This document shows, in pieces, positions 3,967 to 53,428 of a stretch of 64,000 nt of DNA. This DNA is from Acidobacteriota bacterium (GTDB taxonomy: Bacteria > Acidobacteriota > Thermoanaerobaculia > Gp7-AA8): NCBI GenBank assembly GCA_019244185.1, contig JAFATB010000013.1, forward strand, positions 66,438 to 130,437. The letters are read 5' to 3'. A program made the position numbers and the translations under genes. The notes under the pieces are model-generated. The model was not told where the DNA came from. It did no database searches and was given only the letters and a program-made list of their open reading frames with translations. How positions within the stretch are numbered: the stretch's first letter is position 1; every line of letters begins with the position of its first letter.

Positions 3967-5493
3967 CTACATCCCCGCGCCCGACGAGGCGTTCGCCGCT
4001 GCCGCGAGCTCCTTCGCCCGCGCGTCGCGGCGATCCTGCAACGCGAGCTCCTCGGCGCGCCGTGCGATGTCCACGCCGCCGCCCGTCCCCTTCAGCGACT
4101 CGCCCCAGACGGCGCCGAGGGACGCGAGACGATGCCGGCGTGACGCCGCGGTCCACGGCCGCGTGAAGTCGCCCGCGTGGATCACGCGCTCGATCGTGTG
4201 CGTGCGGCCGTCGCTCACCGACGTGTAACGCAGACGGATCGTCGCCACGCGCTGCATCGCGCGCAGGCCGCTCTTCAGTTCGAGCGCGTAGAGCCCCGTG
4301 ACGGACACGTTGTGCAGCAGCGCCGACTCCGGCGCGATGTCGTCGCTCTCGCCGATGCGATGGAACGACGCGACCGCGTCGCCGTCGATGTCGACGTCGA
4401 GCGAGGCGTCCTTCGCGATCGGCGGCGTCGAGGCGCCGCCGGCGATCGGCATCGCTTCGGTGTCGACGGTGAAGCGCACGATGCCGCCGTTGCCCGACGT
4501 CTGCACCGGCGCTGGCGAGGCTTCGACTTCGAGGCGCACGCCGTGCTTCGGCGGCTTTGCCGGCGCGCCGGCGAAGTAGTTGACGAGCGCGTCGACGTTG
4601 ACGCGATTCGCCGCGGGACGGCCGCCGTTTTCGAGCGTGGTCTTGATCTGATGGAAGACGTCCGCGTCGACGGAGATGCCGAAGACCGCGCGGCGCGGGC
4701 CGAGATCGAGGTCGACCGCGTACGCTTCGCGCACGATCGACGACGAGTTCGCGGTTTTCGCCATGCGCGGCGCGGCGGTCGCCGCCGCGGTGGCAACAGG
4801 CGCCGCGGGCGGAGCGGCGGGCGCCGGCGCGTTGTCGGCCATCTGCTGCGGCGCGGACTGGACCACGATGCCTTCCGACACCGCGCCGCCGACCACGTTC
4901 CCGACGGTTCCACCGACCACGCCGCCTTCGACGCCGCCCGCGTTCTCCGCGAGCGCATCGCGCGCGGGCGCTGTTTCGTTGCGCGCCGCGACGCGCGCGT
5001 CGGCGAGTTGCTGCACCGGCGCCGCCTCGGCACGCGCGCGTTGGCGTTGCGCGGCGATTTCCGGCGCGGGAACTTCCGGCGCGGGAACTTCCGGCGCGGG
5101 AACGGCCACCGGCATCGCCGCCGGCGGCGCCTGCGCGATCTCGACGCGCACTTCGCTCGGCGTCGGCGAGGTCACGGTCACGTCGGCGGCGCGCTGCGGC
5201 GCGGCCATCGGCGCGCGCGGCGGCAGCGCGGCAGCCGTCTTCATCGAGACGAGGTTCGGGTCTCCTTCCCGCAGCAGATGCATGGTCACGAGGACCGACG
5301 ACACCAGGAGGATGATCGAGGCGGCGATGCGGAAGTTCAGCGTCATCGACCGCGACAGGCGGCGGCGTTCGTTTTCCGCGTCGAGGTACTTCGGGATATC
5401 GGCCTTGATGCGCTCCGCGAGTCCCGCCGGCGGACGCGGGACCGCCGTCAGGGACAACTTTCGCTGAAGCTCGGCTCTGCGCTTCACATTCAT
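3967..5493 (-). CDS. anti-sigma factor, single-pass membrane protein with large extracytoplasmic domain
   Basis: Its 5' end overlaps the upstream ECF sigma stop by 4 nt. One TM helix (IAASIILLVSSVLVTM) follows a short cytoplasmic N-terminus; then an Ala/Pro-rich linker with a (VPAPE)x3 repeat and a C-terminal globular domain. Confidence 0.7.
   Translation of the reverse strand: MNVKRRAELQRKLSLTAVPRPPAGLAERIKADIPKYLDAENERRRLSRSMTLNFRIAASIILLVSSVLVTMHLLREGDPNLVSMKTAAALPPRAPMAAPQRAADVTVTSPTPSEVRVEIAQAPPAAMPVAVPAPEVPAPEVPAPEIAAQRQRARAEAAPVQQLADARVAARNETAPARDALAENAGGVEGGVVGGTVGNVVGGAVSEGIVVQSAPQQMADNAPAPAAPPAAPVATAAATAAPRMAKTANSSSIVREAYAVDLDLGPRRAVFGISVDADVFHQIKTTLENGGRPAANRVNVDALVNYFAGAPAKPPKHGVRLEVEASPAPVQTSGNGGIVRFTVDTEAMPIAGGASTPPIAKDASLDVDIDGDAVASFHRIGESDDIAPESALLHNVSVTGLYALELKSGLRAMQRVATIRLRYTSVSDGRTHTIERVIHAGDFTRPWTAASRRHRLASLGAVWGESLKGTGGGVDIARRAEELALQDRRDARAKELAAAANASSGAGM
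5059..5103. repeat. 15-nt perfect tandem repeat x3 (ttccggcgcgggaac) inside the anti-sigma linker
   Basis: Directly visible as cgggaacttccggcgcgggaacttccggcgcgggaac. It encodes VPAPEVPAPEVPAPE on the minus strand. Confidence 0.7.
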
Positions 5494-6092
5494 GACAACA
5501 CTTCCTCGTCGAGCAGCGTCTCGAGGAGCGAGAACGCGCGATGCAGACGTTTCCGAATCGCAACCGTCGTGATGTTCTCGATCCTCGCGATCTCTTTCAC
5601 CGGCAGTCCTCCCCAGAAGTGCGCGGTGACGGTGAAGCGCAGATCGTCGGAGAGTTTCATGACTGCCTCGCGGAGGCGCTCGGCCTCCTCGGCGTCCGCC
5701 AGCAGTTCATCCGCCGCGGGACGCTCGTCTCGTACGTCGATGGCATCCGGCTCGTCGAGCGACGTCATGCGCCGCGGACGCCGGATGTGATTCAGAAACG
5801 TCGTGTAGGCGATACGGTAAAGCCAGGTGAAGAGTTGCGAGCGGCCGTCGAATCCCGACAGCGCCGCCCATGCTTTCTGATAGGTCTCCTGTGTCAGATC
5901 CGCCGCCAGATCGCGATCGCCGCAGAGGCGGAAGATCGATGCGAAGACGGCGGAGTAGGTTCGTTCGACGAGCTCCTCCGCGGCCGCGGTGTCGCCCGCG
6001 CGGATGTCCGCGAGGAGCTTCTGCTCCCCTCTGACGGGCGGGCTCGCATCCTGCTCCCGCTCGCGCGCCGGAAACGAAGCCACTTCGGCCAT
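5490..6092 (-). CDS. ECF (sigma-70 family group IV) RNA polymerase sigma factor
   Basis: 200 aa with region 2 (ELVERTYSAVFASIFRLCGDRDLAADLTQETYQKAW) and a region 4 HTH (LPVKEIARIENITTVAIRKRLHRA). It is coupled by a 4-nt overlap to the downstream anti-sigma. Confidence 0.85.
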   Translation of the reverse strand: MAEVASFPAREREQDASPPVRGEQKLLADIRAGDTAAAEELVERTYSAVFASIFRLCGDRDLAADLTQETYQKAWAALSGFDGRSQLFTWLYRIAYTTFLNHIRRPRRMTSLDEPDAIDVRDERPAADELLADAEEAERLREAVMKLSDDLRFTVTAHFWGGLPVKEIARIENITTVAIRKRLHRAFSLLETLLDEEVLS

Positions 6093-8488: not shown

Positions 8489-8609
8489 CAGAGGGTGGAT
8501 TCATGCGATGATCTCCATACATCCGTAAAATCTGATGCAAAGTGCGGTACTCTACGCGAGTCCAAGTCGTCGTCCGGAGAGAGGTCGTCGTCAAATCGCC
8601 GTCCACGGC

Positions 8610-8639
8610 AGAAAACGTGGTAACGTGAGATGGGTCTAA
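8610..8639 (+). promoter_or_regulatory. candidate ECF-type promoter (GAAAAC-N18-GTCTAA) for the sigma gene
   Basis: GTCTAA, the classic ECF -10 element, lies at about 8634-8639; an AAC-containing -35-like hexamer GAAAAC lies 18 nt upstream at 8606-8611. The region is locally AT-rich. If this promoter is real, translation should begin at the in-frame GTG at 8693, which has an AGGAAAGG Shine-Dalgarno. Confidence 0.3.
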
Positions 8640-9322
8640 AATCCGCGAATCTGCAACGTTCCGCCGAACAGGTGCGTGAAGGAAAGGCCGCCGTGCTGGA
8701 ACAGAACGCAAGCGATGGATCAACCGGCGCTTCCCCTCGGCGAAGCGAGAAGAAGCTGCAGGCCGATGCGAATCGCATCGAGAGCGAGCCGGGCGCGCAG
8801 CCGCTGCCGCCGACGCAAGCGGCCGACGACGTCGAGGCGCTCTACATCCAGCATCGCAAGCTCCTGCTCTATGTCGCGTGCCGCAAGTTCCGCATCCCGG
8901 AGAGCGACGCGGAGAGCCTGACCCAGGAAGTCTTCCTGTCCTTTCTGCAGAACGGCACGAAGATCGACAACGTCCGCGCGTGGCTCGTGGCCGCGATGTG
9001 CAATGCGAGCCGGCATTTCTGGCGCGCGTCGGGACGCACCGAGTCGCTGCCGGACGACTTCAACGATCACTCCGATCCCGATTCGGTCGGCCTCGCCGAT
9101 CAGTTCGCGATGCGCATGACCGTGCATCAGGCGCTCGAGTACCTCCAGCCGCGCTGCCGCGAGACGCTCTACCTGCACTACTTCGAAGGGCGTTCCGCGA
9201 ACGACGTCGCGCGCGAGCTCGAGACCACGAACCGCTACGCCGAAAAGCTGATCCACAACTGCCTCAAGCGCGTCCGTGAGATCTATCTCAACATCACGAA
9301 CGTGCAGAAATCGCCGAAGTGA
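8630..9322 (+). CDS. ECF RNA polymerase sigma factor (probable true start GTG 8693)
   Basis: Region 2 (EALYIQHRKLLLYVACRKFRIPESDAESLTQEVFLSF) and region 4 (LYLHYFEGRSANDVARELETTNRYAEKLIHNCLKRVR) are present. The N-terminal ~20 codons of the ORF overlap the putative promoter. Confidence 0.8.
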   Translation: MGLKSANLQRSAEQVREGKAAVLEQNASDGSTGASPRRSEKKLQADANRIESEPGAQPLPPTQAADDVEALYIQHRKLLLYVACRKFRIPESDAESLTQEVFLSFLQNGTKIDNVRAWLVAAMCNASRHFWRASGRTESLPDDFNDHSDPDSVGLADQFAMRMTVHQALEYLQPRCRETLYLHYFEGRSANDVARELETTNRYAEKLIHNCLKRVREIYLNITNVQKSPK

Positions 9323-9326
9323 TGTG

Positions 9327-10682
9327 ATGGATACGGCCATGGTCGAACGCCACTACGACGAAGAGGCCCTCATCCCGTTCCTCGACGCCGGCCGCGCCGC
9401 CGCCGACCTCCACCTGCTGGCCTGCGCCGAGTGCCGCGACAAGCTCGAGAACTTTCGCCAGCTCGCCGACACGCTGCGCGAAGAAGACGTGTGGGACACC
9501 CGCGTCCTCGCCGCCCCGCCCGTCCCCGAGACTATCCGCAGTCTGCGCGCATTCGCCGACCGTGCCGCCGCCGAAGACACCGCCGCCGAGGCGTTCGTGG
9601 CGGAGCTCCTCGCCGGCGATCGCGAAACCTGGATGCCGCGATTGCAGCAACACCCCGAATGGCGCACCGCCGGCATGGTCCGCCGCCTCCTCGCCGCATA
9701 CGAGCGAGCCCTCGACACCATGCCCTCCGACGCCGTGGCCATCACCTCCCTCGCGATCGACATCGCCGAGCAACTCCCCACCACGGCCCACCCCGGCGAC
9801 ACGGTGGCGAAGTTGCGGGGCGCGGCGTGGAGGGATCGGGCGTACGGACTGTTGTTCACGGGGCAGTTCGCGAAAGCGGAAGAGGCTCTTTTTGTCGCTG
9901 AAAGTCACTTTAGTGACTGCTTCATTGCCGACTATGACCTCGCGCGCGTCGGCATCGTGAAATCGTTGGTACTTCGTGCCTGCGAGCGCTTCGATGTCGC
10001 AACTGATGCGGCGCAGAAGAGCACGCGCACGTTCACGTTGTACGAAGACGACACGCGCGCAATGTCTGCCGGTCTAGCCGAGGCGCAATTACTGTTCAGC
10101 AGAAGCGAATTCGCCGAGGCGTTTACACGCCTTTCGAACTTGACGCGCCGGCTCGCGCAGTCGAGTGACACGCGCAACTATGCGCGCGTCCTTTCGAATC
10201 TCGGGTACTGCTGCTGGAAGCTCGGCCGGATCGAGGAAGCTTTGCAGCATCACCAAGTCGCGGCCGCTTTCATGGAGGCGGACAGCCGCAGTGAAGCCGC
10301 GAAAGAGAAGTGGAACATCGCGTCGATTCTCGCGAGCGAAGGCCGCTTCGCAGAAGCGCTCAATCGATTCGACGATCTTCTTCAAGAGTTCGAGTCCTTA
10401 GGGATGACGAACGCGTGGGCTCTCGTCAATCTCGAAATAGCGGAGATTCGTTTGTCGCTCGGCCAGTACGAAACGGTGGAAGACATCTGCCGCTCTGCCA
10501 TGCGAACGTTCGAAGCCGCGGGGTTGGCGCACACCGAGCGAGCCCTGCGGGCGCTCGCGTTCATGCGTGAGGCGGCACAAAATCGGACAGCGACGCCGGT
10601 CTTGGTTCGCCATGTCCGGGAGTACGTGCGGCGAGCTCCGAATGAGCCGCAACTTCTATTCGCTCCACTGCCGCTGGACTAA
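9327..10682 (+). CDS. cytoplasmic anti-sigma factor, zinc-finger (HxxxCxxC) N-terminus with TPR-like C-terminal repeats
   Basis: ATG at 9327 lies 4 nt after the sigma stop. The N-terminus carries the LHLLACAECRDKL putative-zinc-finger anti-sigma motif. There is no TM segment. The C-terminal half is a run of helical TPR-like repeats (NLGYCCWKLGRIEEALQHH...). Confidence 0.65.
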   Translation: MDTAMVERHYDEEALIPFLDAGRAAADLHLLACAECRDKLENFRQLADTLREEDVWDTRVLAAPPVPETIRSLRAFADRAAAEDTAAEAFVAELLAGDRETWMPRLQQHPEWRTAGMVRRLLAAYERALDTMPSDAVAITSLAIDIAEQLPTTAHPGDTVAKLRGAAWRDRAYGLLFTGQFAKAEEALFVAESHFSDCFIADYDLARVGIVKSLVLRACERFDVATDAAQKSTRTFTLYEDDTRAMSAGLAEAQLLFSRSEFAEAFTRLSNLTRRLAQSSDTRNYARVLSNLGYCCWKLGRIEEALQHHQVAAAFMEADSRSEAAKEKWNIASILASEGRFAEALNRFDDLLQEFESLGMTNAWALVNLEIAEIRLSLGQYETVEDICRSAMRTFEAAGLAHTERALRALAFMREAAQNRTATPVLVRHVREYVRRAPNEPQLLFAPLPLD

Positions 10683-10780
10683 ATCGAAAAATCCATTCGC
10701 CCGAGGTAGGGATTTGATGCGCTGCGTCACTCCCTATGGCAAGGGCGCGCCTTCCCAACCACCACCGCTAGGAGGGCGTT

Positions 10781-10978
10781 ATGAAATCGTACAAAATCCG
10801 TCTTGCCGCTGCCTGCTTTGCCGCGGTTCTGTCTCTGCCTGCGTTTGCTGCCGCTGATGTGCCGCGTGAGAATCCCGGACGCGATATCACCGCAAGGCTG
10901 ATCCGGATCATCAAGCAGATCGCCAAGCCGATCGGCATTGTCGCTCACGATGACCAGCCGCAGCTTCCCCGTCCCTGA
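10781..10978 (+). CDS. small secreted peptide precursor (65 aa; Sec signal peptide plus ~41-aa cationic amphipathic mature peptide)
   Basis: Strong Shine-Dalgarno (TAGGAGGGCG) 5 nt before the ATG. Signal peptide MKSYKIRLAAACFAAVLSLPAFA with an AFA|AAD cleavage context. The mature region ITARLIRIIKQIAKPIGIV is helical and amphipathic. Codon usage is T-ending and atypical for this genome. Confidence 0.55.
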   Translation: MKSYKIRLAAACFAAVLSLPAFAAADVPRENPGRDITARLIRIIKQIAKPIGIVAHDDQPQLPRP

Positions 10979-11020
10979 CCCGCAACCCAACCCCCGCCCG
11001 CCCGTACAATGTGCGCGGTA

Positions 11021-11052
11021 GCGCGCCGAAGCCCGGATGGGCTTCGGCGCGC
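11021..11052 (+). terminator. perfect 14-bp GC stem-loop (gcgcgccgaagccc-ggat-gggcttcggcgcgc) between the peptide gene and the ABC transporter
   Basis: The inverted repeat is directly visible. There is no U-tract after it, so it may be a partial terminator, attenuator or RNA-stability element rather than a canonical intrinsic terminator. Confidence 0.35.
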
Positions 11053-11077
11053 GCGCCGTGAGGAGCGTGCTTGGCTG

Positions 11078-12028
11078 ATGGGTGAGCGAATGGGGTCGCG
11101 GGAGATTCTCGCGGTACGGGACATCGTGAAAGTGTTTGGCGCCGTGCGGGCGGTGGATGGGATTTCGTTCACCGTGCGGCGGGGGACCATCACCGGGCTC
11201 CTCGGGCGCAACGGCGCGGGGAAGACGACGACGATCCGGATGATCACCGGCATCTTCATGCCGGACTCCGGGGAGATCCGCTGGCTCGGCGGCGAACACG
11301 GCGGCGCTTTCCAGGACCGCATCGCCTATCTGCCCGAAGAGCGCGGGCTCTACAAGCAGATGAAGATCATCGAGCATCTGCTGTTCCTCGCGGAGATCAA
11401 AGGCTGCCGCGGCAGCGATCTGCGCAAGAAAATCGACTACTGGCTCGACCGCTTCGAGCTCGGCGCGAAGCGCAATGCGAAGGTCGAGGAGCTGTCCAAA
11501 GGCAACCAGCAGAAGATCCAGCTCATCGGCACGCTGCTGCACGATCCCGATCTCATCATCCTCGACGAGCCGCAGTCGGGGCTCGATCCGGTCAACATGG
11601 TCCTCGTGCGCAACCTCCTACAGGAACTGCGGCAGGAGGGAAAGACGATTCTCCTCTCGACGCACATGATGGGAGAAGCGGAGCGCATGGCCGACGAGAT
11701 CATCCTCATCCACCGCGGCAAGGTCGTCCTCGACGGCACGCTCGAGGAAGTGCGCGCGTCGTTCGGCAAGAACACGCTGCATCTCGACTTCGAAGGCGAC
11801 GGCTCGTTCCTCGAGACGCTGCCGCAGGTGAAGCGCGCCACGGTGCTCAGCAACACCGCCGAGCTCGCGCTCGCGGAAGGCGCGGACCCGCAGCAGATCC
11901 TTGAGGCGTCGATGTCGCGCCTGCGCATCCGCCGCTTCGAAGTCGCCGCTCCGTCGCTCGAGTCGATCTTCATCGAAAAGGTCGGCACCGAGACGCTGTC
12001 GCAGCAGGAGGAGGCGGCGCAGCCATGA
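11078..12028 (+). CDS. ABC transporter ATP-binding protein (ABC-2 type exporter ATPase)
   Basis: Walker A (GRNGAGKTT), ABC signature (LSKGNQQK), Walker B (ILDEP), H-loop. ORF 11009 likely starts at the internal ATG at 11078, which is preceded by GAGGAG. Confidence 0.9.
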   Translation: MGERMGSREILAVRDIVKVFGAVRAVDGISFTVRRGTITGLLGRNGAGKTTTIRMITGIFMPDSGEIRWLGGEHGGAFQDRIAYLPEERGLYKQMKIIEHLLFLAEIKGCRGSDLRKKIDYWLDRFELGAKRNAKVEELSKGNQQKIQLIGTLLHDPDLIILDEPQSGLDPVNMVLVRNLLQELRQEGKTILLSTHMMGEAERMADEIILIHRGKVVLDGTLEEVRASFGKNTLHLDFEGDGSFLETLPQVKRATVLSNTAELALAEGADPQQILEASMSRLRIRRFEVAAPSLESIFIEKVGTETLSQQEEAAQP

Positions 12029-13359
12029 ACAAGATGATCGCGGTGCTCAAGCGCGAGTACCTTCAAGCCGTCCGCAAGAAGATGTTCATCATCATGACCT
12101 TCGCGTTCCCGTTCCTGATGGGCGCGATGATCACGCTGCCGGGCCTCATGGTCTCGCGCGGCCTCGGCACGAAGCGCATCGCGGTGCTCGACGGCACGGG
12201 CAGCCTGCGCGACGCGTTCAATCGTCCCAACGAGCAGCCGAAGAAGGACGCGAAAGACGAGGCGCGCGCCGCCCTCTCCGGCCGCCGTCAGATGGAGATC
12301 CCGTCCGAGCTCGACATCGAATACGTCGATCAGCAGAACATCGCGGACGTACAGCAGGCCGCCGATCCGTATCTCAAGAGCCTGCGCGCCGAAGGGAAGA
12401 ACGCGCACTACGACGGCGTCCTGGTCATTCCGCGCGACGCGATGACCTCGGACGACGCGAAGCTCACGTATTACAGCCGCAGCGCCACCGACCTCGTCAC
12501 GCAGGAGCGCCTCGGCCGCCTCGCGAACAAAGTCATCCAGCGCCACCGTCTCGCCGCGAACGGCATCAACATCGAGACCGTGGAGAAGCTGACGACGGAC
12601 GTTCCCGTCGAGAGCGTGCAGATCTCGCGGAGCGGCGAGCAGAAGAAAGGCGGCGACATGAACTTCATGCTCGCCTTCGTCTTCGCCGCGCTCCTGCTGC
12701 TGCCGTCGTTCATCTACGGCAACGACATCATGCGCGGCATCGTGCAGGAGAAGACGGAGCGCGTCGTCGAGGTGCTGATCTCGTCGATGAAGCCGTTCGA
12801 GCTGCTCACCGGCAAGATCCTCGGCGTGGCCAGCGTCGGCCTCACGCAGATCAGCGTCTGGATCGCGATGCTCGCCATCGCCGGCGCGTACGGCGTGGCC
12901 GCGGCGTCGATGGCGGGGATCAACGTCGCGCAGTTCCTCCGCCCGATCGTCTTCGTCTACTTCTTCGTCTTCTTCATCCTCGCGTACCTCACCTACGTCT
13001 GCGTCTACGCGATCGCCGGCGCGATCTCGAACTCGGAGAAAGAAGCGCAGCAGTTCGTCGCGCCGATCAGTCTCGTCATGATGGCGCCGTGGTTCATGAT
13101 GTTCCCGATCATCATGAATCCCGACTCGAAGCTGGCGGTGGCGTTCTCGCTGATGCCGGTGTTCGGACCGATCACGATGTTCGTGCGCACGCTCGTGTCG
13201 GAGCCGCCGCTGTGGCACATCGCGGTCTCGATCGCGGTGTCGCTCGTGACGATCGGCGTCTTCTTCTGGACCACCGGAAAGATCTTCCGCGTCGGCATCC
13301 TGTCGTACGGCAAGCGTCCGACGATTCCGGAGCTGTGGAGGTGGATGAAGGTGGCGTGA
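12025..13359 (+). CDS. ABC-2 family transporter permease (NatB-like)
   Basis: 4-nt overlap with the ATPase gene. N-terminal TM, large periplasmic loop, then a C-terminal 5-TM bundle typical of ABC-2 permeases. Confidence 0.85.
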   Translation: MNKMIAVLKREYLQAVRKKMFIIMTFAFPFLMGAMITLPGLMVSRGLGTKRIAVLDGTGSLRDAFNRPNEQPKKDAKDEARAALSGRRQMEIPSELDIEYVDQQNIADVQQAADPYLKSLRAEGKNAHYDGVLVIPRDAMTSDDAKLTYYSRSATDLVTQERLGRLANKVIQRHRLAANGINIETVEKLTTDVPVESVQISRSGEQKKGGDMNFMLAFVFAALLLLPSFIYGNDIMRGIVQEKTERVVEVLISSMKPFELLTGKILGVASVGLTQISVWIAMLAIAGAYGVAAASMAGINVAQFLRPIVFVYFFVFFILAYLTYVCVYAIAGAISNSEKEAQQFVAPISLVMMAPWFMMFPIIMNPDSKLAVAFSLMPVFGPITMFVRTLVSEPPLWHIAVSIAVSLVTIGVFFWTTGKIFRVGILSYGKRPTIPELWRWMKVA

Positions 13360-53366: not shown

Positions 53367-53428
53367 TCAACACCCCTTCACTACGACACTCAACTGAAGG
53401 AGTGACGGAGAGAGGGCGTTCCCTACCA

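Follow-up and report, generated by a model that had tools for sequence, protein, structure and literature searches.

A conserved small-protein family encoded beside an ECF sigma factor and a putative TPR-containing anti-sigma factor in Acidobacteriota

What is the role of a 65-residue pre-peptide whose gene lies directly downstream of a sigma factor gene and a gene for a tetratricopeptide repeat (TPR) protein in an Acidobacteriota bacterium? The gene in question is a small open reading frame (ORF) at positions 10781-10978, forward strand, of a 64,000-nucleotide stretch of contig JAFATB010000013.1 (assembly GCA_019244185.1, positions 66,438 to 130,437), which we call the window. An original prediction, made from the letters of the window, had described it as the gene of a secreted peptide with an antimicrobial-like mature region, and had suggested that it was very highly expressed, recently acquired, or both. 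Its coordinates and translation proved exact (65 amino acids plus a TGA stop), and a real gene for a peptide with a predicted Sec-type export signal survives the analysis that follows; recent acquisition, very high expression and an antimicrobial function are not supported. We conclude that the ORF represents a new small-protein family with a defined regulatory context, and we propose that the locus is a variant both of soluble zinc-binding anti-sigma (ZAS) systems and of RRNPP-type peptide cassettes.

The coding status of the ORF was assessed from the ORF list, homologues at the same position, the ratio of nonsynonymous to synonymous substitution (dN/dS) and profile searches. Loci were sampled through homologues of the neighbouring TPR protein, which are plentiful in metagenome-assembled genomes (MAGs) labelled Thermoanaerobaculia or Acidobacteriota. 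This gave 54 genome loci, to which were added the two closest relatives, with TPR proteins 75-76% identical to that of the window; four loci (L001-L004) are identical to the window, being the same strain, and so are uninformative for conservation. Enough downstream DNA was available at 48 loci (46 genome loci plus L059 and L060), and in all 48 a homologous ORF of 59-83 amino acids is found about 100 nucleotides 3' of the TPR gene. The concern, raised with the original prediction, that relatives might have no such ORF at this position is thereby removed. Although the peptide of the window shares only 19-58% identity with these homologues, frame, length, start context and architecture are all kept. 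Among 18 evaluable close pairs, dN/dS (Nei-Gojobori) ranged from 0.12 to 0.39, below 0.4 in every case, implying that the mature sequence as a whole is under purifying selection.

An exhaustive hidden Markov model search of 1.84 billion representatives returned 273 clusters (50% identity) at E <= 0.001. Among the 150 clusters listed, all but one are proteins of 59-76 amino acids that match from end to end, the exception having 101. Because the ORF is conserved in 48 of 48 loci, shows the dN/dS of a protein-coding sequence and has these 273 clusters of relatives, we conclude that it is a genuine conserved gene under purifying selection and not a chance ORF. The family is undescribed: Pfam, NCBIfam and PADLOC gave no match or model for the peptide, and an Rfam scan of positions 9500-12500 at E <= 1 gave no match. 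It is also largely uncalled by annotation. A 46-member profile found just 13 proteins in the indexed protein database, and the sole match of a single-sequence search there was a 'hypothetical protein' of an Acidobacteria MAG (GCA_019233985.1), the peptide itself. Members with a readable genomic context all come from Acidobacteriota MAGs, mostly labelled Thermoanaerobaculia, and lie directly 3' of genes for a sigma factor of the extracytoplasmic function (ECF) type and a TPR protein with a ZAS motif (ZAS-TPR protein).

The pre-peptides of the 48 loci share one architecture, with a basic n-region and a hydrophobic core behind an initial Met, then AxA and (A)PR[D/E], then an amphipathic basic helix, DD and an x-P-x-P-P-[K/R]-P end. 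The N-terminal part, MKSYKIRLAAACFAAVLSLPAFA (10781-10849, + strand), is a predicted Sec/signal peptidase I signal peptide, as judged by heuristics for the n-, h- and c-regions, the AxA, an AlphaFold2 model and the family profile. Its n-region carries K2, K5 and R7 (+3), and its h-region has a mean Kyte-Doolittle hydropathy of 2.43 over 12 residues; the predicted cleavage context is AFA↓A, or AAA↓D two residues later. By the same heuristics, on which all our signal peptide calls rest, the n/h/c pattern and AxA context of the signal peptide that the original prediction had pointed out in the window are present in 47 of 47 homologues, and Ala at -1 (3.6 bits) is among the most conserved columns of the profile. 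We infer Sec-dependent export of the pre-peptide and cleavage at AFA↓A, leaving a product of about 42 amino acids.

Within this product, residues 33-51, GRDITARLIRIIKQIAKPI (10877-10933, + strand), form an amphipathic basic helix by hydrophobic moment and AlphaFold2; the family consensus for the helix, which spans some 15-19 residues, is ERIVRIIKKIQKFF. For the segment RLIRIIKQIAK the hydrophobic moment is 0.98, whereas shuffles of the mature peptide give 0.63 and none of 200 equalled the observed value, a result that bears out the amphipathic cationic helix of the original prediction. Across the family the mean moment is 0.87 versus 0.61 for shuffles, with 68% of members at p < 0.05 and 32% no more amphipathic than shuffles. 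The net charge of the mature peptide is +2 in the window and ranges in the family from -2 to +6 (mean +2.9). In the AlphaFold2 model of the peptide, which was built on a 13-sequence alignment and is of low confidence (mean predicted local distance difference test, pLDDT, 62), residues 3-25 and 33-51 are helical and the tail is disordered.

The acidic, Pro-rich tail HDDQPQLPRP (10946-10975, + strand) had likewise been noticed earlier and corresponds to a family consensus DD-x-P-x-P-P-[K/R]-P-COOH. The extreme C-terminus, PP[K/R]P-COOH, is the most conserved part of the peptide. Its PP-x-P columns have the highest information in the profile (4.1 bits), the protein nearly always stops exactly there, and 93% of 198 unique members end in Pro and 75% in [KR]P. 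Some members run 5-25 residues past PPxP; five homologues (L010, L022, L052, L036 and L006) have poly-Pro/Thr tails in this position, for example PTPPPPPPTTTT.

What, then, are the genes with which the peptide gene is associated? The usual gene order is M20 peptidase (minus strand), sigma factor, TPR protein, peptide, ABC (ATP-binding cassette) ATPase, ABC permease and acyl-CoA synthetase. The ECF-type sigma factor gene (8630-9322, + strand) matches Sigma70_r2 and Sigma70_r4_2 in Pfam and TIGR02937, sigma70-ECF, in NCBIfam (54 bits, cut-off 42.9). Its product has regions 2 and 4 only, after an N-terminal stretch of about 60 amino acids, and its relatives are 52-83% identical. Five nucleotides past the sigma stop codon begins the gene of the ZAS-TPR protein (9327-10682, + strand; the start may be 9339), which encodes 447-451 amino acids. 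A ZAS motif, H29-x3-C33-x2-C36, is invariant in 35 homologues and reads HLLACAEC at residue 29, and the Pfam zf-HC2 model did not match the protein. TPR_12 (E 4.9e-8) and TPR_1 (E 7.8e-7) match above their Pfam cut-offs. We found no transmembrane segment (maximum Kyte-Doolittle hydropathy over 19 residues, 1.26), and an AlphaFold2 model (pLDDT 88) is all-helical, with about eight TPR-like pairs of helices after an N-terminal helical domain. These features suggest that the ZAS-TPR protein is a soluble anti-sigma factor of the adjacent sigma, and they make it a candidate receptor. The peptide gene follows 98 nucleotides from the TPR gene on the same strand, an arrangement common to all 48 loci.

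Upstream of the sigma gene, positions 8489-8660 are highly conserved across loci (TTCATGCGATGATCTCCATACATCC ... GAAACGTGGTAACGTGAGA-ATGGGTCTAAA). Here TGGTAACGT resembles an extended -10 box; it ends about 5 nucleotides before the annotated sigma ATG, with no Shine-Dalgarno (SD) sequence, and the first 60 or so sigma codons are absent from the alignment in several distant homologues. This suggests that the sigma mRNA is leaderless or that the sigma start codon lies further downstream.

The DNA between the TPR gene and the peptide gene is more conserved than the peptide ORF itself: the DNA flanking the ORF is almost the same in the closest relatives, whereas the encoded protein is just 52-58% identical. 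This region holds a bipartite motif, GGTAGGGA-N14-TCACTCC (10705-10733, + strand), which we propose as the cognate ECF promoter of the small ORF. In 47 aligned loci it consists of an invariant GGTAGGG(A), exactly 14 variable bases and an invariant TCAC(T)CC; then come 5-8 nucleotides, AAGGGCG(CG)CCCTCC, 12-35 variable nucleotides, AGGAGGG and the ATG. A structured RNA or riboswitch was considered for the GGTAGGGA...TCACTCC part and rejected, because the spacing is fixed and the same motif stands before many unrelated genes; moreover, RNAalifold gave no supported structure, the energy being -6.9 kcal/mol and the covariation term -0.14, and no paired column varies. A scan of positions 10600-11120 found no consensus sigma-70 promoter and no intrinsic terminator.

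The motif is not confined to the peptide gene. A looser core, TAGGG-N12-22-CACTCC, occurs twice in the window, against 0.03 occurrences expected. The second copy, GGTAGGGAACGCCCTCTCTCCGTCACTCC (53399-53427, - strand), which matches the full motif exactly, sits between a Cys-rich ORF of 133 amino acids (53830-53429, - strand) and one of 96 amino acids (53366-53076), and is upstream of the latter and of a gene resembling type II NADH dehydrogenase (53065-51791). Neither ORF product has a Pfam or PADLOC match. This arrangement recurs in at least six metagenome loci (L066, L084, L106, L130, L141 and L147), with the NADH dehydrogenase gene wherever the contig reaches it. A scan of metagenome contigs for GGTAGGGA-N14-TCACTCC found at least 119 loci. 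Among the matches listed, four are canonical TPR-peptide loci, and conservation extends to positions that the search left unspecified: the motif is preceded by G in 67%, GGGA is followed by A in 61%, TCAC is preceded by G in 77% and CC is followed by T in 84%. Among the 95 evaluable matches listed, an SD-preceded ORF of at least 50 amino acids starts within 100 nucleotides downstream in 50 (median 24 nucleotides), compared with 8 of 95 in the reversed orientation. With its fixed spacing, lack of RNA covariation, orientation towards start codons and many targets, the element behaves as a promoter.

Which sigma factor would read it? At six of the metagenome loci listed (L090, L114, L118, L151, L154 and L170) the motif lies about 45 nucleotides upstream of a distant sigma gene (26-34% identity), which precedes the gene of an HxxxCxxC-TPR protein where the contig allows. 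Because a bipartite element of fixed spacing here precedes its own sigma/anti-sigma operon, the signature of autoregulation, it is probably the cognate promoter of this sigma family, and in loci of the Thermoanaerobaculia type it would drive the peptide gene rather than the sigma operon.

A second control element lies between the promoter and the start codon. The strong SD sequence of the original prediction is there, AGGAGGG 6 nucleotides before the ATG, but it forms part of the 3' arm of a leader hairpin (AGGAGGGCGT, 10770-10779, + strand). The facing anti-SD element, GCGCCTTCC (10747-10755, + strand), is part of a near-palindrome, AAGGGCGCGCCTT, at 10741-10753, and CGCCCTCC is the exact complement of GGAGGGCG. 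Pairing of SD and anti-SD is possible in 93% of alignment cells; both sides are conserved and covariation is small, so that the feature rests on conserved complementarity. In the minimum-free-energy fold of the window leader (-15.2 kcal/mol, not better than shuffles, z -0.1), positions 10747-10755 pair with 10771-10779, and across 46 loci (mean z -1.04) such a fold joins the SD to a 5'-proximal element in 39. The loops of the hairpin vary in length and sequence, some with nested hairpins. We read this as a conserved SD-masking leader, which would be the opposite of a signal for maximal translation.

The codon usage that had seemed to point to high expression or recent arrival can also be understood differently. 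The enrichment in T-ending codons is real: G+C at third codon positions (GC3) is 0.64 in the small ORF and T at third positions (T3) is 0.29. The figure of about 90% GC3 given earlier for its neighbours holds for the downstream ABC, acyl-CoA synthetase and FadB-like genes (GC3 0.88-0.94, T3 0.03-0.05), but not for the upstream sigma gene (0.83, T3 0.10) and TPR gene (0.75, T3 0.12). Pooled over the family, the peptide genes have a T3 of 0.234 and an A3 (A at third positions) of 0.123, against 0.05-0.08 and about 0.05 in neighbours, and the fast-evolving TPR gene is intermediate (T3 0.14, A3 0.11). It is in the codons of the signal peptide that the shift is strongest (T3 0.34, GC3 0.51); the mature part shows less of it (GC3 0.72). 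The skew is thus old, family-wide and tied to the 5', signal-peptide part and to fast-evolving genes, and it fits codon effects at the 5' end or signal peptide, together with weak codon selection, better than high expression. The position of the SD within the conserved hairpin also speaks against very high expression. Recent horizontal acquisition is rejected by conserved synteny, the order M20 peptidase, sigma, ZAS-TPR, peptide and ABC being kept where TPR proteins are only 33-76% identical. More generally, neither horizontal transfer nor high expression need lie behind a low GC3 and a perfect SD in a GC-rich genome.

These observations lead us to a tentative model, possible rather than probable and drawn by analogy, in which the peptide is a ligand or feedback signal of the TPR anti-sigma, in the manner of Rap-Phr and other RRNPP systems. 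The ZAS-TPR protein would hold the sigma factor as its anti-sigma. The sigma would recognize GGTAGGGA-N14-TCACTCC, with the peptide gene as a dedicated target in cis; the pre-peptide would be exported by Sec and cut at AFA↓A; and the product of about 42 amino acids, or a C-terminal fragment of it, would be the candidate ligand of the anti-sigma's TPR domain, acting after re-uptake or as an un-exported precursor. Ligand binding would free the sigma to transcribe the peptide gene and its other targets. Because the peptide gene carries what appears to be a sigma-dependent promoter, this would make an autoinducing or feedback loop, to which the leader hairpin could add translational gating. The logic would be that of Rap-Phr/RRNPP, although the output would be an anti-sigma and the phylum a diderm one.

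How far does the comparison go? In Rap-Phr systems of Firmicutes, a TPR protein sequesters a transcription factor until a peptide that has been exported by Sec, processed and re-imported binds to it, and phr genes have sigma-H promoters. Here, similarly, a cytoplasmic TPR protein of about 450 amino acids would inhibit a transcription factor, a gene for a pro-peptide of 60-70 amino acids with predicted Sec export lies directly downstream, and that gene has a candidate alternative-sigma-type promoter of its own. When the model of the ZAS-TPR protein was compared with the PDB by Foldseek, Rap structures were among the best fold matches, which are peptide-binding TPR superhelices: complexes of LGN/Pins came first, followed by RapH, RapI, RapF, RapJ, pLS20 Rap and phi3T Rap, with TM-scores (template modelling scores) of 0.45-0.55 and 9-17% identity overall, and about 0.41-0.55 and 9-14% for the Rap proteins. 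TPR recognition of the carboxylate-clamp type would predict a conserved free C-terminus such as PP[K/R]P. In formal terms the locus can also be matched to the five features of the published RRNPP signature, in which a propeptide of 10-100 amino acids, secreted by Sec, is encoded directly adjacent to a receptor of 250-500 amino acids with TPRs (Bernard et al. 2023, PMC10075063): the small size of the propeptide, receptor length, TPRs and adjacency agree, and Sec export, the fifth, is predicted by heuristics.

The differences from Rap-Phr are also clear. In sequence the ZAS-TPR protein shows no homology to Rap, Rgg, NprR, PlcR or PrgX; its effector domain is of the ZAS anti-sigma kind and not a helix-turn-helix (HTH) domain or the Rap three-helix bundle; the host is a diderm acidobacterium with no Opp-type importer linked to the locus; and the central helix of the pro-peptide is conserved, not only a short C-terminal signal.

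Co-evolution of ligand and receptor was looked for by comparing distance matrices (mirror-tree). No parts of the locus evolve faster than the TPR domain and the peptide, and distances of the mature peptide correlate with those of the TPR domain when M20 peptidase distances are controlled for (partial r 0.25, permutation p 0.001), with a partial r of about 0 for the anti-sigma N-terminal domain and the sigma in the same test. The signal is present but weak and non-specific, and the test ambiguous.

Several points weigh against a ligand of the TPR anti-sigma. The first is this same test: the signal-peptide part, taken as a control, gave a partial r of 0.30, so the co-variation may be an artefact of rate. 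The second is topology, since the receptor would be cytoplasmic and the peptide exported in a diderm, which calls for the assumption of re-import or of binding ahead of export; in the neighbourhood of the locus no peptide importer was found. Third, Pfam and NCBIfam matches place the ZAS-TPR protein in none of the Rap, Rgg, NprR, PlcR, PrgX or AimR families, and the likeness of its predicted fold to Rap is a generic TPR resemblance, not a demonstration of homology. Fourth, the good conservation of the central helix, unlike that of Phr and PapR propeptides, suggests a function for the whole 40-mer. Finally, the sigma-promoter link is one of association, and the region upstream of the sigma gene in the window's lineage contains other conserved elements and no copy of the motif. 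The fuller claim, that this is an RRNPP-like cell-cell or feedback system outside Firmicutes, with an anti-sigma receptor, recognition of PP[K/R]P and an ECF regulon as output in Acidobacteriota MAGs labelled Thermoanaerobaculia, is speculative and, in our estimate, rather unlikely.

The locus can also be set beside known anti-sigma systems. ChrR is a soluble ZAS anti-sigma with a C-terminal sensor domain (PMC8999054). As in the pairs ChrR-RpoE, RsrA-SigR and RshA-SigH, an ECF sigma gene is followed here by that of a soluble protein in which an N-terminal HxxxCxxC is combined with a distinct C-terminal domain, and in some lineages a putative cognate promoter precedes the sigma operon. Unlike in these systems, the C-terminal domain is a TPR superhelix of about 340 amino acids, neither a cupin nor absent, and the promoter in the window's lineage stands at a small secreted-peptide gene rather than at the sigma operon. 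In ECF42 sigmas a TPR extension, thought to bind another protein, is fused to the sigma itself (PMC7826278, PMC8999054). Both cases would have a cytoplasmic TPR sensor presumed to bind a protein or peptide, but here the TPRs are on a separate anti-sigma protein and a candidate ligand gene adjoins.

Might the peptide instead act together with the ABC transporter encoded downstream? This pair, a DrrA-type ATPase and an ABC2_membrane_3 permease, follows the peptide gene in 39 of 47 loci, and the ATPase also matches models for lantibiotic protection and for export of phenol-soluble modulins (PSMs), below their cut-offs. No ABC homologue was found within the 1.5-4 kb of downstream DNA at seven loci (L013, L014, L019, L022, L024, L026 and L036), in two of which (L024 and L026) the acyl-CoA synthetase gene comes directly after the peptide; at L005 the pair is displaced some 1.8 kb further downstream. 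All eight loci keep the peptide ORF. Between the peptide stop and the ABC start is a conserved C-rich stretch with CGTACAAT, found only where ABC genes follow. Because the ORF persists without the ABC pair and the pair has a box of its own, the peptide gene appears to belong with the sigma and TPR genes, and the ABC operon to have its own promoter. On the same grounds, co-transcription with the ABC transporter genes, or a leader role for them, was rejected.

The leader of the ABC operon in the window (10979-11090) comprises TACAAT at 11005-11010, a hairpin at 11021-11052, the SD GAGGAG at 11060-11065 and an ATG at 11078. In most loci a GC-rich hairpin in this leader contains the ABC SD and start codon, and its sequence differs among species while its pairing is kept. 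It looks like a separate translational control element with compensatory changes.

The rival that survives best, and that we consider doubtful but serious, is that the peptide is a membrane-active effector: an exported cationic amphipathic peptide as the main output of the sigma, antimicrobial or bacteriocin-like or acting on the cell's own envelope, with the ABC-2 transporter as exporter or immunity factor. The signal peptide and short cationic amphipathic helix are indeed those of cationic alpha-helical antimicrobial peptides and Sec-dependent bacteriocins, and the high hydrophobic moments and mean charge of +2.9 described above agree with such a role. So do the transporter genes that come next in most loci, with their sub-threshold matches to lantibiotic-protection and PSM-export models, and, among the metagenome motif matches listed, several other motif-driven genes that encode small secreted Cys-rich proteins. 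However, the charge varies and is sometimes negative, acidic residues flank the helix, the helix is short and the tail is acidic and Pro-rich; the strongest constraint falls on the C-terminal PP[K/R]P and not on the helix. The context is a sigma/anti-sigma module. In a diderm, Sec would bring the peptide to the periplasm only, and no outer-membrane export genes and no bacteriocin maturation or export cluster were found in the genomic context. The ABC pair appears to have its own promoter and is undetected in seven loci that keep the peptide, and sequestration of the SD argues against mass production. The 'AMP-like' character of the original prediction is thus best described as a resemblance.

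We regard as improbable a second rival, in which the product is a periplasmic accessory or feedback protein of an envelope stress response, following the logic of CpxP, Spy or ZraP, and the most strongly induced member of the regulon. A dedicated sigma-type promoter beside regulator genes and an export signal would suit such a protein, and periplasmic domains of the PDZ type could recognize the conserved free C-terminus, a form of recognition known from DegS and Prc; gene order with the ABC-2 transporter is also kept in most loci. Its partner, to be contacted through helix and C-terminus, might be a PDZ protease, for example, or the ABC-2 permease with its large periplasmic loop. But the anti-sigma appears to be soluble and cytoplasmic, with no obvious route for feedback from the periplasm, and a helix and disordered tail of 40 amino acids would be small for a chaperone-like protein.

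A third possibility is a regulatory leader or arrest peptide, whose Pro-rich PPxP-stop end would stall ribosomes in a secretion-dependent manner and so control the downstream ABC transporter. Secretion-dependent stalling is known from SecM, MifM and VemP. The combination of a signal peptide with a near-invariant Pro-rich C-terminus ending at the stop codon recalls them, and the ABC ATPase gene, with its SD-containing leader hairpin, begins 50-100 nucleotides downstream. We nevertheless find this very improbable. The ABC operon has its own conserved -10-like box, CGTACAAT, between the two genes, and the peptide persists where no downstream ABC pair is detected; the stop codon varies among TGA, TAA and TAG; some members carry 5-25 residues after PPxP; and purifying selection extends over the whole mature sequence. 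In addition, the stop follows the signal peptide after only about 40 residues, a short distance for a force-sensing arrest peptide.

The weakest alternative, a chance ORF within a conserved non-coding regulatory region, could appeal to the low GC3 for the genome, to flanking non-coding DNA that is better conserved than the ORF in the closest relatives and to the absence of the gene from many genome annotations (13 proteins in the indexed database), but it is effectively refuted by conservation and dN/dS, since every one of the 48 loci retains frame, length, start context and architecture at low identity, dN/dS is below 0.4 in all 18 informative pairs and the 273 profile matches are full-length small proteins.

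We found no description of the sigma/ZAS-TPR/peptide triad in the literature searched, and a literature search for the motif strings gave unrelated matches only. If the peptide does act as the ligand of the TPR anti-sigma, an ECF anti-sigma factor would for the first time have a genetically encoded peptide ligand, a Gram-negative phylum would have its first RRNPP-type architecture, and there would be a testable way into signalling in Acidobacteria, soil bacteria that are abundant but barely tractable. Whatever its mechanism, the locus yields a new small-protein family mostly missed by gene callers, a candidate for the cognate promoter of an uncharacterised ECF group whose anti-sigma would be a soluble ZAS-TPR protein, and a conserved leader that would mask the SD.

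Finally, other genes downstream of the promoter motif hint at a broad regulon by their variety. Among the motif loci listed from soil metagenomes, TIR-like genes lie downstream at five (L068, L121, L175, L140 and L078), Ser/Thr kinase-like genes at two (L076 and L168) and genes for small Cys-rich secreted proteins at two (L070 and L094). Two small-protein families also recur among them, one of about 130 amino acids (L087, L112, L143, L174, L082 and L115) and one of about 55-85 (L079, L096, L102, L111, L144, L153, L155, L164 and L137). In the window itself, a second ECF sigma gene (5490-6092, - strand; Sigma70_r2, Sigma70_r4_2) is followed by a gene for a protein of about 500 amino acids with a faint vWF_A match (3967-5493, - strand), the coordinates of this pair being taken from gene calls on the identical contig L001.

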